Of a DNA stretch of 37,844 nucleotides, positions 1-37,844 are shown piece after piece; positions within the stretch are counted from its first letter, which is position 1, and each line of letters opens with the position of its first letter. A model generated the notes under the pieces. The model saw only the letters and a list, made by a program, of their open reading frames with translations. It searched no databases and had not been told where the DNA came from. A program made the translations under genes and the position numbers. Source of the stretch: a virus (lineage: Duplodnaviria > Caudoviricetes); the IMG/VR virus record IMGVR_UViG_3300049009_000076, positions 1-37,844 of that record; one strand, given 5' to 3'.

Positions 1-19
1 GTCCATATTGTCCATAAAC
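1..19 (+). repeat. left terminal inverted repeat (19 bp)
   Basis: GTCCATATTGTCCATAAAC is the exact reverse complement of 37826-37844; 7-18 (ATTGTCCATAAA) is also inverted at 49-60. Confidence 0.95.
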
Positions 20-182
20 CCTAAAATAGTCAGGTTGTATATGGTTTTTTTATGGACAATTCGCGCATGATTTTAGTTATCCATGTCAAATCCAAACTAT
101 CCATGCAAAATAAGGGTTTGTCCCTATAGTATTTGCAAGGGAATAATTTACATTCTATTTGTGCGCGCGATATTGCGCCACA

Positions 183-11868: not shown

Positions 11869-12015
11869 ATGATTGAAGCAATTAAAAATTTTTTTAGAAA
11901 AGACCAACAAATTGTTGAACAAGGTCTTGTCTGGCGTTGCACACGTTGCAACATGATTTTTCTAACTAGATCAGCAGGAGAGCGGCACCCATGCCAAGAC
12001 CCAAAAGTGAATTGA
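11869..12015 (+). CDS. small Zn-finger-like protein (48 aa)
   Basis: read by hand: WRCTRCNMIF...HPC. Confidence 0.6.
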   Translation: MIEAIKNFFRKDQQIVEQGLVWRCTRCNMIFLTRSAGERHPCQDPKVN

Positions 12016-12149
12016 CCAATGTGGCCAAGAACGTCGGTGTGCGGTTGATACCGGCGCACCACGCAGAATGGAAGCGTTTGGGTGGTGCCAAGTGGTTGCG
12101 CCAGATGCTGTCGCAAAGTATTAAGGAGAAGCGCGATGCCAGCGTTTGA
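11991..12149 (+). CDS. small putative DNA-binding protein, ribbon-helix-helix-like (52 aa)
   Basis: read by hand: MPRPK...VGVRL...KRLGGAKWLR; AGGAG SD. Confidence 0.6.
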   Translation: MPRPKSELTNVAKNVGVRLIPAHHAEWKRLGGAKWLRQMLSQSIKEKRDASV

Positions 12150-14955: not shown

Positions 14956-15578
14956 GCCCATGTCCCCACGTTAGTCGCTGCGCCTGATGCGGAAAGCGGA
15001 TTGATTCGGATGTAGCTGCCAGCGACTGTTGAGTACGCACCGCCGGGTGCGGCAGATAAGGTGTATTGCGGGATGAACGTGCCGCCAGCGTTGATTGATA
15101 CTGTGCCTTTGAGTACTCCAGCTATAAACATAGTTGCAGAAGCATTTGCCGCAGTTACCGCTGTAGCAGATGCACTTTGCACAAATACAATATCTTGTGC
15201 AGAATTTGTTCTGCTTGTAAAACTAGAACCACTATCCATTCCTACGTATAAATATGAAATGTTGTTTAGCGTAGCCGTACCACCAAAACCTGTAGACAGT
15301 GTATGTGAAGTAGCACCTGCGGTTTTGCTAAACGCAGAAACTATCTCAAACTCATACACAGTGCTTGCTGACAGTGTTACACCAACACCAAATATGCTTT
15401 GCACTGTGCTGACGTTTGCTCCTGCAAGGTCAGCGTTCAGTCTGTAATACTGTTGAGTCGGAACAATCCCTCGCTGTGTGCCGATAGGTGTAGCCGCAAA
15501 GATGGGGCTTGTGTATTCAATGTTGCCAGCGGCTGCTGTAGCAATCAGCGTGTCAGAAGTTAAAACAAGTATTGACAT
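14952..15578 (-). CDS. tail appendage protein
   Basis: S/T/A/G-rich beta protein inside fibre cluster. Confidence 0.65.
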   Translation of the reverse strand: MSILVLTSDTLIATAAAGNIEYTSPIFAATPIGTQRGIVPTQQYYRLNADLAGANVSTVQSIFGVGVTLSASTVYEFEIVSAFSKTAGATSHTLSTGFGGTATLNNISYLYVGMDSGSSFTSRTNSAQDIVFVQSASATAVTAANASATMFIAGVLKGTVSINAGGTFIPQYTLSAAPGGAYSTVAGSYIRINPLSASGAATNVGTWA

Positions 15579-20972: not shown

Positions 20973-21674
20973 TTACCCTGTCATAGAAGAATAGTCACCC
21001 GGCACCGGCTTACCGTACCCAGTAGGTGAAGATAAGTTTCGCATTGCTAATTGATTTGCTATGTTTTGACTGTTTGTGTAGTTTAAATACGTATTCAAAC
21101 CGCCGGTCAAAGCGTTTGCGCTGCCGACATAGCCAGACGCCCGTGCAGCAGCACTGCTGCCCATAGCGTCGCCAACATTTGAAGCCATCTGCTGACCTTG
21201 CTGACCTATTTGTTGGGCAGTGGTTTGGCCCATACCTGTCATAGCTTGCAAAGGTTGCAAACGAGCGGTACGCTCGGCCTGATAGCGGTTGAATGCGTTG
21301 GTGTACTCTTGCGAGCCCATTTCTTGGCCAAACCGCGTAAGCGCCTTGCCAGTGCCGCCAGACAGCAAACCACCACGGGCCGCAGCGGATCGCTCCAAGG
21401 CTTTTGTACCTTCGCTCAATCGAAATGCATAACCTGGATCAGCCTTAAACTGATCCATACCAAACGGTTTGTATTTTGATGCCTCAACCAGTTCCGGCAA
21501 TGCGTTGACACCGACGTCGTAGAAAGGTTTTTGTCTTACAACGTCTTCTTGGTATTGTCGGTATTGCAATTCCGAAGAACGATCCATTGCGCCAGCTTGT
21601 ACGTCTGCGCCTCTTTCTGCCGCCTTTGAACCCATGAAGGACGAGGCGACAATTGCTGTTGCTATTGCTGACAT
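20973..21674 (-). CDS. DNA ejection protein, P22 gp7-like
   Basis: DPGYAFR...SAAARGGLLSG..GKAL.RFGQ..SQEY. Confidence 0.8.
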   Translation of the reverse strand: MSAIATAIVASSFMGSKAAERGADVQAGAMDRSSELQYRQYQEDVVRQKPFYDVGVNALPELVEASKYKPFGMDQFKADPGYAFRLSEGTKALERSAAARGGLLSGGTGKALTRFGQEMGSQEYTNAFNRYQAERTARLQPLQAMTGMGQTTAQQIGQQGQQMASNVGDAMGSSAAARASGYVGSANALTGGLNTYLNYTNSQNIANQLAMRNLSSPTGYGKPVPGDYSSMTG

Positions 21675-22537
21675 GCTGACTCCTTAAATTCAATACCTGA
21701 CAGCGCCAAGGCTTGCCGGTAGTCAATTGTTATCTCAGTACCCATAGCGCCGCCTTTACATCCTTCAATGTCAACTAGCGCAACAAGATCGATGTTGCCG
21801 TTAGGCAGCATAACCATTTTTGCGTTTGGTGTCTTTGAATGATTGGTAAATCGACCACCTTGTGTTCGGTACCCGTCTATTCTGGCCGCGCAAATAATGT
21901 CGCCTGATTTTACTGGTGAAGTCAAAAATAGACCTTTACCTTCTATGGGCGACTCAGCTACGCGAGTAATTTGGCTATCAACCCATCTTTGATCGTATTC
22001 GTTTTCAGACTGCTGTCTGGCCAACTCATGAGGTATACCGCATTCGTCAAGCAAGTTAAAGTAATCTTCACGGTCGTCTACACAGGTTAGCTTTTCAACC
22101 GCCAGTTTAGATTGTTGGTCTTGCATCCAATCTTCGCTCTTTTCAATAAAAACAGCTTCCACCGAGTCTGGGTCTGTCAACTCAGTAGCGTAAATGTTTT
22201 GCCATACCATGTCTTCCAAAACGTATCCTATCTTGCGGCCAGCTTTGCCGGTAAAGATCATTGGCGCGGTCAATACTTGGGTGCTGCCGTCGTCTGTAAC
22301 GATCATTACTTTGCCGCGCAACATAATGTTCAGGTGGTCAAATTTTTGTTTATGGCCAATAGCCAAAGTGTCCGCAGGCATGAAAACCTCACGGATACAC
22401 ACCCCAGGGCCAAAGTGATGCACGACAGAGCATTCGACTTGCGGCAACTGCAAAAGCGTTTGCTCAGGCTTTTCTAAGCTCAAAAGCTTACGCAAAACCA
22501 GTTGGCCGACGTCTTCTTGCTTGGTTAAATTGCTCAT
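21662..22537 (-). CDS. cupin-like domain fused to SET domain (putative lysine methyltransferase)
   Basis: N: HHFGPGVCIRE..MPA....GH....H..I...G; C: SPIEGKGLF, RFTNHS..PN, EITIDY. Confidence 0.85.
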   Translation of the reverse strand: MSNLTKQEDVGQLVLRKLLSLEKPEQTLLQLPQVECSVVHHFGPGVCIREVFMPADTLAIGHKQKFDHLNIMLRGKVMIVTDDGSTQVLTAPMIFTGKAGRKIGYVLEDMVWQNIYATELTDPDSVEAVFIEKSEDWMQDQQSKLAVEKLTCVDDREDYFNLLDECGIPHELARQQSENEYDQRWVDSQITRVAESPIEGKGLFLTSPVKSGDIICAARIDGYRTQGGRFTNHSKTPNAKMVMLPNGNIDLVALVDIEGCKGGAMGTEITIDYRQALALSGIEFKESACQQ

Positions 22538-32446: not shown

Positions 32447-32809
32447 CTATGCCAAGTATTTGAGTTTGTAAATTGTGCGAAGATAAATTTCAACGATGTT
32501 ATCGATAAGCTGTTGCAATGACGAATCTGACTTGTCTGCAACCTTATACCGAACTTCTTCAATTTCAGCCAACGAGCTTTCTAAAAACTCAATGATGTTG
32601 GAAGTCTTCTTTGCCGAATGCAAAGTGATGGGGCCAATCAAACCATGACGGCCTTGGTAGGCTTCAGCAAAGTCATCTGCCGCTCCAACAATTCGATCAT
32701 AGAAAATATTAAGCGCGTCGTGTTTGCTGAAGCTGCGGGTGTTCAAGTGAACGCTATGCGCCACGTCCCGTGCTAGAAACAGCAAGCCTAAAAAATCAGC
32801 TGCTTTCAT
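32447..32809 (-). CDS. ferritin/Dps-like four-helix bundle protein
   Basis: H..H.....H.AL..FY.....D.FAE.YQG; IDNI......YKL. Confidence 0.7.
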   Translation of the reverse strand: MKAADFLGLLFLARDVAHSVHLNTRSFSKHDALNIFYDRIVGAADDFAEAYQGRHGLIGPITLHSAKKTSNIIEFLESSLAEIEEVRYKVADKSDSSLQQLIDNIVEIYLRTIYKLKYLA

Positions 32810-35004: not shown

Positions 35005-36528
35005 TTATGATCCCATCCATGATGCGTTGACCCCACCGCCTTGAGCGTTCACGCGGCGGGTTGGCTCAACATATTGCCGATGTGCTACAGGAAACGCAAA
35101 TGTAACAGCAATCGCGTCGGCTGCGTCGGGCGACGCCAACCCACGCGACTTCATGTCCTTCTTCGATTCCAAGAATATCGTGCCTCTTGAGTCAGGCTTC
35201 ATCATAGGCGAAATCAAGTCCGTTTTCAAGAACCTATCGTTCGGAATGCTCGCCGTCTTGAGCCAATCGCGCATGTCGCCCCACATCTGCGCGCGCATGT
35301 TGCCGTACATGACGGGGTTCTTCGCCTTATTTCCGAAGTTCACGCCCTTGATTTTGTACCGTTGTTCTTTCAACCTATCCACAATGCCCGCGCCCAAGCC
35401 ACCTTCGTCGATTATTGTGAGCGTCGGCTTGTACTCTTCAATCGCTTCGATCACATGCCCGACCACCGTCATGGTGTCGTCCCCTCGATGCCGCATGATC
35501 TTCACAATATCCCGCCCTTGCCGTACCGCGATAACCGTTGCATCCGCTCCAAACCGTGCCGGATCGACCCCGATCACTATCGGCGCACTCTGATCTTGGT
35601 ACTTGGTGCGCTTCATGGCGTCGTCCACGATGTCAGCCCCAATGAACTGATCATCCCCCGCGTTGGGGAACTGACCGTACACCTCGACGTGCGCCTGCGC
35701 CGAGTCTGGCCCATATTCCGCGATGATCCGCTCGTATACCTGCTTGTCGGTGCCTTCGACCGTGCGCGCGTCCACCACTTTCGTGCGCCAGAACTCTCTT
35801 TTGCTGTTAAACGCTTCGTAAAAGTACCCCGTGTTGCGGCGCGGGTTGGAAAAGGCCAGCCAGAAGCGATTTGGCGTGTTTTCTGTGAAAAAACCGCCCG
35901 TAACTGCCCAAATTGAGTCGTCAATACCTGATGCTTCGTCAAAAATCACCAAAACACCGTCGAAATTGTGCACACCAGCGTAAGCGTCGGGGTTTTCCGC
36001 TGACCATAAGCGTCCCTCCACGCCCCAGTAGCGTGTGCCCTTCTTCAAATCCCGCTCGACCAGCTCAGTCAGCCACTTGGCGGGCATCAATCTTGTTGCA
36101 CTGACCTCAAACCAGTGGCTGTTGATCGACATTGCCAGCCACTTGGTGATCTCGGCCCAGGTGATACTGCGGAGCTGGGACTCCGAGTTGGCCGAGATGA
36201 TGGTCGTCGAGCCAATCCTTGTCGCCAGCATCCAGATAGTTAGCCAACTAACCAACGCCGACTTACCAATACCACGGCCAGACGATATTGCTTCTTGCAG
36301 CACGTCAAAGTCCAATTTATTGCTATTAGCTTTGATATGCACAGCAATATCCAGCAGCACTTCGCGTTGCCATTTGCGCGGCCCTTGGAAGTGCTCCAGC
36401 GGCGTACCCTTGACGCCCCAAGGAAAAGTCAGCATCACAAACGCCAGCGGGTTATCCTTGATGGCTGGGCTCCATAGCCGCGCCATAAGTTCTTGCTCAT
36501 CCTCCGCTGAATATATGGTGCTTTGCAT
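35005..36528 (-). CDS. terL: terminase large subunit
   Basis: Walker A SGRGIGKS, Walker B IFDEAS, SNP, nuclease GVDPARFG.D, SPDAADA. Confidence 0.96.
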   Translation of the reverse strand: MQSTIYSAEDEQELMARLWSPAIKDNPLAFVMLTFPWGVKGTPLEHFQGPRKWQREVLLDIAVHIKANSNKLDFDVLQEAISSGRGIGKSALVSWLTIWMLATRIGSTTIISANSESQLRSITWAEITKWLAMSINSHWFEVSATRLMPAKWLTELVERDLKKGTRYWGVEGRLWSAENPDAYAGVHNFDGVLVIFDEASGIDDSIWAVTGGFFTENTPNRFWLAFSNPRRNTGYFYEAFNSKREFWRTKVVDARTVEGTDKQVYERIIAEYGPDSAQAHVEVYGQFPNAGDDQFIGADIVDDAMKRTKYQDQSAPIVIGVDPARFGADATVIAVRQGRDIVKIMRHRGDDTMTVVGHVIEAIEEYKPTLTIIDEGGLGAGIVDRLKEQRYKIKGVNFGNKAKNPVMYGNMRAQMWGDMRDWLKTASIPNDRFLKTDLISPMMKPDSRGTIFLESKKDMKSRGLASPDAADAIAVTFAFPVAHRQYVEPTRRVNAQGGGVNASWMGS

Positions 36529-36530
36529 GT

Positions 36531-37022
36531 TTATGGCCGATGTGGGTGGTACAAGACTTCAGCTTGTTGTCGTGCTGCAACCGCGTCATCTATGTCTTGA
36601 AACATTCCAAGATATGTGGGTTTTCCGTTTACTTCGATGTGCGCTTGCCAGCGTTGGTCGCGTTTGTGCCATGTTACACCCAAATATCCAGACGCGCTTT
36701 TGGTTTTGCGGGCGCGGTTTTGATGGTTTTGAGCGCATGAAACATCGCGCAAATTGGTTATTCTGTTGTCGGATGTAACGTGATTTATATGGTCTATTTG
36801 ACCTGTAGGCCAAACACCATGCACATACAGCCACACCAGCCTATGCACTTTATGCACTTCACCGTCTACGCTGCATTGTAAATACCCCCTAGTGCCTAGA
36901 GTACCTACAAGAGTTCCTGCGGGTTGATTTTTAATTTTCACGTTGCGCGTGAATTTCCCTGTGGTCGGGCTGTAGTCGAACAGCGTCTTCAGCCGTTCTT
37001 GCGTTAAACTTGAGTGAGTCAT
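36531..37022 (-). CDS. HNH homing endonuclease with AP2 domain
   Basis: HRLVW, IDHIN...DNRI.NLR....N; SGYLGV.W....W.A.I.....YLG.F.....A. Confidence 0.92.
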   Translation of the reverse strand: MTHSSLTQERLKTLFDYSPTTGKFTRNVKIKNQPAGTLVGTLGTRGYLQCSVDGEVHKVHRLVWLYVHGVWPTGQIDHINHVTSDNRITNLRDVSCAQNHQNRARKTKSASGYLGVTWHKRDQRWQAHIEVNGKPTYLGMFQDIDDAVAARQQAEVLYHPHRP

Positions 37023-37479
37023 CGCCGTCCTTTTCACGGTTGTTGATTAGAAGCCCTGCATCGTTTCCGCGTTGCGGGGCTTCGTCTATTGTACCCATAT
37101 TTATAACCCGTGACTCTGCTTGGCGCAGCGCGCCGATGATGCTGATGCGCTGATCGACATCGATGCTGATGGACTGCTTGGCCACCCAGCCGTGTGAGTG
37201 CTGGAGGATCGCCAGCGCCGCTTTGGCGTCGCCTTCATGCGCTGCCTTGTGCAGGCACTTGGACATCTCCAACTCGCCGTCGGCTTTGCCCTTTTGCGCG
37301 GCCATGTCCGCGATGGGGTCTAGCTCGCACAGTTGCCGGTATTCGGTCGGCAACATGCCGGACGCTAAGGCCAATGCGTCGCCCTTCAAGCCCAGCTTGG
37401 CGGCGTCGTAGATTTTGTTCAAGCGCGCTTCGGTTGCGACAACCTTGCGCGGCTCAAAAGGTAGGCTGTGAAACGTCAT
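36931..37479 (-). CDS. terS: terminase small subunit
   Basis: HTH-like N-terminus, A..GD.KA..AIL.H..GW, ISI..AL.QA..RV; first gene of late block. Confidence 0.8.
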   Translation of the reverse strand: MTFHSLPFEPRKVVATEARLNKIYDAAKLGLKGDALALASGMLPTEYRQLCELDPIADMAAQKGKADGELEMSKCLHKAAHEGDAKAALAILQHSHGWVAKQSISIDVDQRISIIGALRQAESRVINMGTIDEAPQRGNDAGLLINNREKDGDDSLKFNARTAEDAVRLQPDHREIHAQREN

Positions 37480-37485
37480 GTGCGA

Positions 37486-37514
37486 AGTGTAATGGATGTG
37501 GGTCATGTGGGCAA
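37486..37514 (-). promoter_or_regulatory. sigma70-type promoter for terS / late block
   Basis: TTGCCC-17 bp-TACACT, 6 nt before terS ATG. Confidence 0.7.
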
Positions 37515-37523: not shown

Positions 37524-37620
37524 CGGTTTTGAACTTGTAGCCATTTTTAAAAAATAAAAAAAATTGTTCGTGAAACCTCCGTCACCGTTGGCCCATGCGC
37601 GCGGGCCCTACCCCCACCCC

Positions 37621-37800
37621 TAAGTTAGTGAGCACTTACTTACAGCAGCCAGGTTAGTGAGTACTCACTTACATCTGAAAGTTAGTGGCTACTAACTTAT
37701 AGATTTGACAAGTTAGTGCATACTAACTTGGCGAAGTGAGTGCTTACTAACTTGGTGATGTTAGTGGTCACTAACATGGTAAGTTAGTGGGCACTAACAT
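37621..37800. repeat. array of seven palindromic SlmA-binding-site-like elements
   Basis: GTTAGT/GTGAGT...ACTAAC/ACTCAC/ACTTAC units; exact GTGAGTACTCAC at 37657-37668. Confidence 0.9.
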
Positions 37801-37825
37801 GGCCATTTGGGTATGTAGTACTATA

Positions 37826-37844
37826 GTTTATGGACAATATGGAC
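37826..37844 (-). repeat. right terminal inverted repeat (19 bp)
   Basis: GTTTATGGACAATATGGAC is the reverse complement of 1-19. Confidence 0.95.

Follow-up and report, generated by a model that had tools for sequence, protein, structure and literature searches.

Does a phage genome carry, in a short piece of non-coding DNA, a set of binding sites for the host protein SlmA, and if so, what would the phage gain from them? The question arises from seven palindromes near the right end of the window, which here means the whole stretch of viral DNA that was analysed (37,844 bp; the record is rated 100% complete). An earlier note, made from the letters alone, had linked these palindromes to SlmA and to a delay of host division.

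The Array and Its Surroundings

A scan of 58 open reading frames showed that the window encodes a P22-type head and ejection module, DNA polymerase A, a DUF2800 nuclease, an SNF2 helicase and a primase. Most of the best-matching sequencing runs are metagenomes of freshwater, lakes, rivers and sediment. Where the early block gives way to the late operon there is a non-coding junction, and this holds the array; the likely terS, an HNH gene and terL follow downstream of it. The features of this region are as follows.

35005..36528, minus strand: terminase large subunit (TerL)
36531..37037, minus strand: HNH/AP2 homing endonuclease between terS and terL, missing from most relatives
36931..37479, minus strand: likely terminase small subunit (TerS), with a helix-turn-helix-like structure model
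37486..37514, minus strand: candidate late promoter of the sigma70 type (TTGCCC, 17 bp, TACACT), immediately ahead of the terS start
37543..37565, minus strand: A/T tract; in 55 of 63 relatives 42 bp separate it from the G-run motif
37603..37620, minus strand: G-run element adjoining the array, its motif ending in GGCC
37622..37800, no strand: SlmA-type array of seven palindromic units, recognised by sequence
37624..37643, unit 1: complete 20-bp site whose two 16-bp registers are 4 bp apart; 18/20 to E. coli SBS17
37653..37672, unit 2: full 20-bp site with two registers (4-bp offset); exact 12-bp SBS consensus at 37657-37668
37681..37696, unit 3: single 16-bp register
37712..37727, unit 4: single 16-bp register
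37736..37751, unit 5: one complete register and a two-mismatch 12-mer; 16/20 to SBS12 including the left flank
37760..37775, unit 6: single 16-bp register
37783..37798, unit 7: single 16-bp register
37826..37844, no strand: one arm of a 19-bp inverted repeat, the other arm being window 1-19

All seven palindromes claimed in the earlier note were found at the positions it gave, as were the exact 12-mer in unit 2 (37657) and the two-mismatch 12-mers in units 1 and 5 (37628 and 37736); a further two-mismatch copy lies outside the array at 15029. Its description of the remaining units as two sites offset by 4 bp did not hold, since units 3, 4, 6 and 7 have one register each and no intact 12-mer, and the two registers 4 bp apart sit instead in the full 20-mers of units 1 and 2. 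In the 20-bp frame the units start 29, 28, 31, 24, 24 and 23 bp from one another. The core GTDAGYR-NN-YRCTHAC has nine matches in the window, all within 37624-37798 even when one mismatch is allowed, while 100 shuffles of the window gave a mean of 0.59 and a maximum of four matches. As the core was taken from the array and its relatives, this result proves clustering but not identity. A Logan contig, which may come from the source sample, reproduces 37653-37828 without any difference.

The candidate late promoter came from our own pattern and was not called by the promoter scan, whose sole call was a plus-strand site at 37800-37827 at chance level. The A/T tract is likely an UP-type element, judging by its sequence, and the G-run element, which is also found in relatives without the array, is possibly a packaging-start or late-control signal. 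The likely TerS has no PHROG or Pfam match; compared with solved structures, its model was closest to Sf6 TerS, although this match is weak (Z 5.8, rmsd 5.9, 86 aligned). The 19-bp inverted repeat was considered as the genome termini and rejected: both arms are internal and ≈105 bp apart in the relative L003, so the window ends are likely contig break points. Contigs from the RNA run X19 cover 16 of 30 bins, and contigs alone show neither ends nor expression.

Next to the array (window 1-130 and 37810-37844) there are origin-like inverted clusters of short repeats. Their unit differs among close relatives, being of the TATGGAC type in the window and of the GACCCACA, GACTAT, GCCCTAA and GACCAA types elsewhere, and these differences in the upstream regions of L001-L080 and L333-L412 suggest fast-changing origin iterons. 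Five of the seven relatives tested (L003:689-763; L006, L009, L020 and L059) have an inserted tRNA-Met gene directly ahead of terS; the window has none.

Conservation in the TerS Clade and Its Sister Clade

Similar arrays upstream of terS in relatives, which the earlier note suggested looking for, are indeed present. Of the 80 loci with TerS relatives, 74 have the array upstream of their likely terS, in 60 distinct sequences and with 3-10 units. Five of the other six loci are without upstream DNA, while L071 has 451 bp of it and zero units, yet its TerS is 89% identical to that of the window. The centre-to-centre spacing in the clade is mostly 22-35 bp, never below 22 bp, and shows no helical phase. 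In 40 of the 66 relatives measured the last unit is 10-15 bp away from the G-run motif; in the others this distance is 37-69 bp. Unlike this near-fixed distance, that between the last unit and terS ranges from 108 to 357 bp.

A second register at the 4-bp offset is complete in 81 of the 314 distinct clade sites, against a chance rate of ≈1.5% as estimated from column frequencies. At position 3 of the half-site T is dominant (67%). Complementarity between the arms at the variable positions was 0.42, 0.68, 0.46 and 0.12, compared with 0.46, 0.72, 0.53 and 0.32 for independent draws. Such a lack of excess is expected of protein half-sites and not of hairpins, and the compensatory variation between arms that would mark an RNA or DNA hairpin array was looked for and not seen.

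In the sister clade (TerS ≈56% identical) such a site was found in none of 80 loci. The same slot beside the G-run, upstream of terS, there holds repeats of the GTTTACAT/ATGTAAAC type (L081:3300-3450; L333-L412), most loci having between 1 and 18 matches in 900 bp. A search with this repeat matched 16 viral stretches; as 13 of them were contigs already collected for the sister clade itself, the repeat is not shown to be widespread.

Resemblance to Known SlmA Sites

The 12-mer of unit 2 was said in the earlier note to be the SlmA consensus, and PMC3020112 gives this 12-bp SBS consensus. The natural sites SBS17 and SBS12, together with SBScons and a 4:1 SlmA:DNA complex, are described in PMC4423959. 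In E. coli, one site is bound by two SlmA dimers and the DNA-bound protein antagonises FtsZ. The array contains the exact 12-mer (unit 2) as well as a match of 18/20 to SBS17 (unit 1), and the best matches of its units to SBScons and SBS12 are 17/20 and 16/20. From the sequence we infer that each 16-bp register would be the seat of one SlmA dimer, and the second register at the 4-bp offset fits the 4:1 complex as presented in PMC4423959. The layout for two dimers is seen in units 1 and 2 only. The T at position 3 departs from the purine preference of the 12-bp assay, but SBS17 itself has T there.

Arrays in Unrelated Phages

A three-unit pattern was found in at least 119 IMG/VR viral stretches, and we estimate their number at ≈260. 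We analysed 80 of the matched stretches with their flanks, and 19 of these lack the window's TerS, one of which (L106) is probably a truncated clade member. The 19 loci encode unrelated TerS, TerL and portal families, the TerS including phrog_1482, phrog_1206 and Sf6-like proteins, and 31 of their 93 sites have the second register at the 4-bp offset. When 13 TerL were compared, that of the window had no match among the other 12; these form six groups of their own, so that the array-bearing phages comprise at least seven TerL groups.

No protein is common to the 15 array-bearing records compared; the widest cluster, a DNA polymerase, spans 8 of them. The earlier note had recognised no TetR-family gene in this phage, and this extends to its fellows: TetR_N was found in none of the 30 array-bearing records scanned, 20 of which have a completeness of 90% or more. 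An autoregulatory operator would be accompanied by its TetR gene on one element, an arrangement that was not seen. The open reading frame at 11991..12149, which the same note had named as a possible binder, has no family match and recurs in only one of 14 other array-bearing genomes, a member of the same clade.

In 15 unrelated loci no more than ≈2 kb separates the array from terS or terL, and in G952, G955, G957 and G959 terL is 4-7 kb away; no terminase could be placed in the remaining loci. In three phages the array is interleaved with other regulator-like boxes (G955:C1:70100-70480, which is L107; L143:1290-1910; G947:C1:7440-7550, which is L109). In the 97-kb siphovirus G955/L107 the array region holds six of seven boxes which we take to be of the sigma54 type and a presumably Fur-like box; those of L143 would be NtrC-like and Fur-like, and those of G947 two LexA-type boxes. 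In the window's clade no such extra boxes were found. In two of the unrelated phages (G957 and G959) a DUF5856 gene lies at most ≈300 bp from the array, while in the window this gene is within the late operon (32447-32809).

No array was found in 16 named phage records, among them phages of Rhodoferax, Curvibacter, Methylophilaceae, Ralstonia and Vibrio. When two arrays were compared by BLASTN with 50,697 named phage records, one gave four matches at chance level and the other none, and TerL searches from two other array lineages returned distant cultured phages only.

The Motif on Bacterial Chromosomes

We counted the 16-mer in 150 Gammaproteobacteria genomes (GTDB class; centre genome G001 excluded), with the reversed motif as control and kinship ignored. 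The 29 slmA-positive genomes had 56 sites against 18 in the control and the 121 slmA-negative genomes, a class that may include incomplete genomes that miss slmA, had 69 against 114 (Mann-Whitney p 2e-6). The counts were 47 against 17 without the top slmA-positive genome and 63 against 112 without two unpublished slmA-negative ones, on which nothing here depends.

With the 20-mer pattern (at most three mismatches) E. coli K-12 gave 16 sites against four in the control, and SBS17 was recovered. None of the 16 lies at 0.42-2.63 Mb and, with oriC where we take it to be, 14 of them are in the origin half (p 0.002). Avoidance of the terminus region is likewise reported for SBSs in section 9 of PMC3020112. 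The strict 16-mer gave seven sites against four in E. coli, one of them near the terminus, and is a weak test alone. The 20-mer sites were one-sided in G002 (15 against 2) and G083 (13 against 9) and sparse in G021, G128 and G142; three of the five slmA-positive chromosomes had 4-6 of them against 2-4 in the control. The family of G001, which is the likely host family, showed weak enrichment (75 against 43 in 80 genomes, about one site each), and a chromosomal operator pair was found in none of 400 genomes of this family.

A two-unit scan of 16 of 64 parts of the bacterial genomes returned at least 120 loci, mainly Actinobacteria and Clostridia among the matches listed. In the subset scanned (27 proteins) the motif pairs adjoin TetR genes in Actinobacteria and DtxR/feoB genes in Clostridia. 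Pfam scans of 12 such loci showed a TetR gene flanked by motif pairs in 8, and five of the nine TetRs inspected have the SlmA-like helix TT...SEA(A/M)LY(K/R)HF. The second register at the 4-bp offset occurs in 36 of 251 chromosomal sites. As TetRs other than SlmA that have its recognition helix lie beside the motif, the motif reports the type of helix. Within Gammaproteobacteria it is SlmA that carries this helix (19 aligned proteins, picked by the helix pattern; 4 of 22 loci were missed by it). The interpretation in the earlier note is supported in part. Its SlmA reading of the motif has more behind it than the letters alone could show: the units match full natural sites, the motif tracks slmA on chromosomes and no binder encoded by the phages is shared among them. 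The motif is not exclusive to SlmA.

Three further observations concern chromosomal loci. In a slmA-positive Pseudomonadales MAG two motif copies lie ≈260 bp upstream of mraZ (L268:5001-5048), hinting at control of the division gene cluster by SlmA. The Clostridia loci L207-L322 have a recurrent GTTAGCA-NN-TGCTAAC pair beside feoB and DtxR-family genes, likely an iron-regulator operator. Finally, G032:C1 has a divergent slmA (150 bits) and nine motif copies, five of which are identical and possibly part of a repeat element.

The Likely Host and SlmA

We infer from sequence relationships that the host would be a slmA-positive Burkholderiales bacterium. Of the phages whose host is on record, the nearest are those of Ralstonia (TerL 48%) and Rhodoferax (adhesin 49%). 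A phage contig with two sites upstream of terS, and with TerL and portal families as in the window, was binned in a slmA-positive Ca. Aalborgicola MAG; binning is weak evidence. The window's TerS was found in none of 401 family-level bacterial genomes and its TerL in 6 of 401 order-level genomes. Only one of these TerL exceeds 60% identity, and its contig has no array and its MAG no detected slmA. For the relative DSL-LC05 the host is predicted as Gammaproteobacteria/Enterobacterales and no finer in PMC10611076, and no SlmA-type sites were found in the genome of this phage. In the tail region, window 21662-22537 encodes a protein with an adhesin-like N-terminus and a SET-like C-terminal match, 49% identical to gp30 of Rhodoferax phage P26218.

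A Burkholderiales SlmA keeps the recognition helix SEAALYRHF. The equivalents of F63/65 and N102 are also kept, whereas R71/73 is replaced by leucine. Non-enteric SlmA proteins in general keep the helix (L326:1495-2220 and L421-L440), but at this FtsZ contact (R71 in V. cholerae) 4 of 19 aligned SlmA have arginine and 13 have leucine. A literature search returned no study of SlmA function outside enteric bacteria and vibrios.

Possible Functions of the Array

The array is a real, conserved and widespread element, and the protein that binds it is probably the SlmA of the host. As the lead reading we propose that the array might be a docking platform for this protein and replicating phage DNA a mobile nucleoid-occlusion signal. 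Nine registers would take up ≈18 SlmA monomers per phage genome, and ≈20 genome copies would hold an SlmA pool of E. coli size (≈400). SlmA would leave its few chromosomal sites and become active at the phage DNA, wherever in the cell this is. Septation would then be delayed, and more progeny would come from a single larger cell. We lead with division delay because unit number and spacing are free to vary, which suits an effect of dosage, and because the antagonism of FtsZ sets SlmA apart. Even so, that the array has been selected for delaying division is a tentative proposal, which we put somewhat below an even chance. We put at slightly lower odds the wider idea that several unrelated lineages of aquatic phages have independently arrived at a division inhibitor without a protein, in which 100-200 bp of arrayed SlmA sites are switched on automatically by genome copy number.

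Several observations speak against division delay. The array is absent from L071 and replaced in the sister clade. Its tie to the G-run and, in some phages, its interleaving with regulator boxes point to a local role. Only 4 of the 19 aligned SlmA keep the arginine at the FtsZ contact, the motif is weakly enriched in the likely host family, none of the 16 named phage records has an array, and motif pairs on chromosomes mostly lie beside TetR or DtxR/feoB genes. The earlier note had stated that multicopy sites can block division in a SlmA-dependent way; this is true of SBS plasmids, which block Z rings in E. coli, but according to PMC3573117 and PMC4117426 the block was seen at about four-fold the native level of SlmA, which is ≈400 molecules per cell.

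Close behind division delay comes a local role, which we nevertheless think rather unlikely: host SlmA would bind without involving FtsZ and would anchor or shield the DNA of the packaging-start and late-promoter region, insulate it from the origin-like repeats or help the late promoter. The near-fixed distance from array to G-run, set against the variable one to terS, argues for such a role, as do the position close to terS or terL in the 15 unrelated loci, the sigma54-, NtrC-, Fur- or LexA-like boxes among the units in G955/L107, L143 and G947, the other repeat that fills the slot in the sister clade, and the scarcity of the FtsZ-contact arginine among the aligned SlmA (4 of 19). There is also a precedent in V. 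cholerae, where SlmA activates Pchb from 167 bp upstream and its occlusion activity is not needed (10.1101/141812). On the other hand, unit number (3-10), spacing and distance to terS all vary freely, terL is 4-7 kb away in four phages, no unit overlaps the candidate promoter and no extra boxes were found in the window's clade. Moreover, the early/late junction seems to be the main non-coding gap, which could alone explain where the array is. As for a place at the packaging start, the array lies upstream of terS and beside the G-run, and the contigs compared show no ends. If the phage's own TerS or another phage protein read the array as a packaging-recognition site, one would understand why it stands directly upstream of terS in the clade, why the TerS model is helix-turn-helix-like and why one TerS residue (YRQL or YRRL) co-varies with the array. 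This is nonetheless improbable because the motif does not follow TerS. One and the same motif accompanies unrelated TerS families and at least seven TerL groups, L071 lacks it despite its similar TerS, and seven array-less loci have GDALALASGMLPTEYR in common with the window. The units are unphased palindromes, the phages have no protein in common, and a repeat that co-varies with TerS family and recognition helix, as at a pac or cosB-type site, was not what we saw.

The array might also recruit or titrate another host regulator of the TetR family with the recognition helix of SlmA. The TetR genes flanked by motif pairs (8 of 12 loci), the SlmA-like helix in five of nine TetRs and the 4-bp-offset registers of the chromosomal sites all suit this idea, but we give it only a small chance, as these TetRs are mostly actinobacterial while the phage relatives point to Pseudomonadota hosts, the motif tracks slmA within Gammaproteobacteria and the 400 genomes of the likely host family contain no operator pair. 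That the phage instead profits from a sponge, removing SlmA from the chromosome and not activating it against FtsZ, is very unlikely. A phage genome has nine strict registers compared with about one per genome of the likely host family, and SlmA is scarce, given the ≈400 molecules in E. coli (PMC4117426), but we found no evidence for a benefit of losing occlusion. Moreover, SlmA is active when bound to DNA and should therefore not be silenced by being titrated onto that of the phage. Least credible are single-strand hairpins or a structured RNA. The minus strand of the array does fold strongly (-72.7 kcal/mol, z -7.5), but it does so because palindromes repeat; the arms are no more complementary than independent draws and the array has no Rfam match.

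We return to division delay by host SlmA for what it would mean. The phage blocks on host division that we found in the literature are exerted by a phage protein or a small RNA. A natural SBS array, if the proposal is true, would reach the same effect by DNA alone, would scale with replication and would be invisible to gene-based annotation. In a literature search with subscription papers outside its coverage, no description of SlmA sites in phage genomes was found. A laboratory assay in E. coli already exists, so the division reading is cheap to test. Even without a division purpose the array could serve to mark the host of many uncultured phages (the ≈260 IMG/VR stretches estimated above) and a lead on the role of SlmA beyond enteric bacteria and vibrios.

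Comparison With Known Systems

The operators of actinobacterial TetRs with the TT...SEAALYxHF helix have the same 16-bp motif as the phage array, sometimes with the 4-bp offset. However, they usually consist of two sites beside their own TetR gene, while the phages have 3-10 sites and no TetR gene. Sites for host proteins are known from the terminal or packaging control regions of other phages, namely the IHF site in lambda cosB and the DnaA boxes at the injection-stop region of T5. The array resembles them in its position, but these cases involve other proteins, and our literature search found no case with SlmA.

The chromosomal SBSs of E. coli and V. cholerae (PMC3020112, PMC4423959 and PMC4117426) are like the units of the array in half-site sequence, 16/20-bp layout and 4-bp offset. 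They are single, dispersed and away from the terminus, whereas the phage array packs seven sites into 180 bp, with five one-register units and a T-dominant position 3, and the likeness is one of sequence. The SBS at Pchb of V. cholerae is, like the array, intergenic and more than 100 bp upstream of a promoter, and shows SlmA used beyond occlusion. It is a single site with strict position dependence, unlike the array with its variable number and distance (10.1101/141812). The nearest parallel to the proposed mechanism is found in the plasmids pHC534 and p2SBSK, on which extrachromosomal multicopy SBSs delocalise SlmA and block Z rings (PMC3573117 and PMC4117426). These are engineered, with two sites and about four-fold SlmA, while the array is natural, with seven sites, and would act at the native level of SlmA.

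The phage division inhibitors T7 Gp0.4, lambda Kil, T5 Hdi and SPO1 gp56 block host division during infection, the same outcome as is proposed for the array. They are all proteins, whereas the array would need only DNA and a protein of the host.
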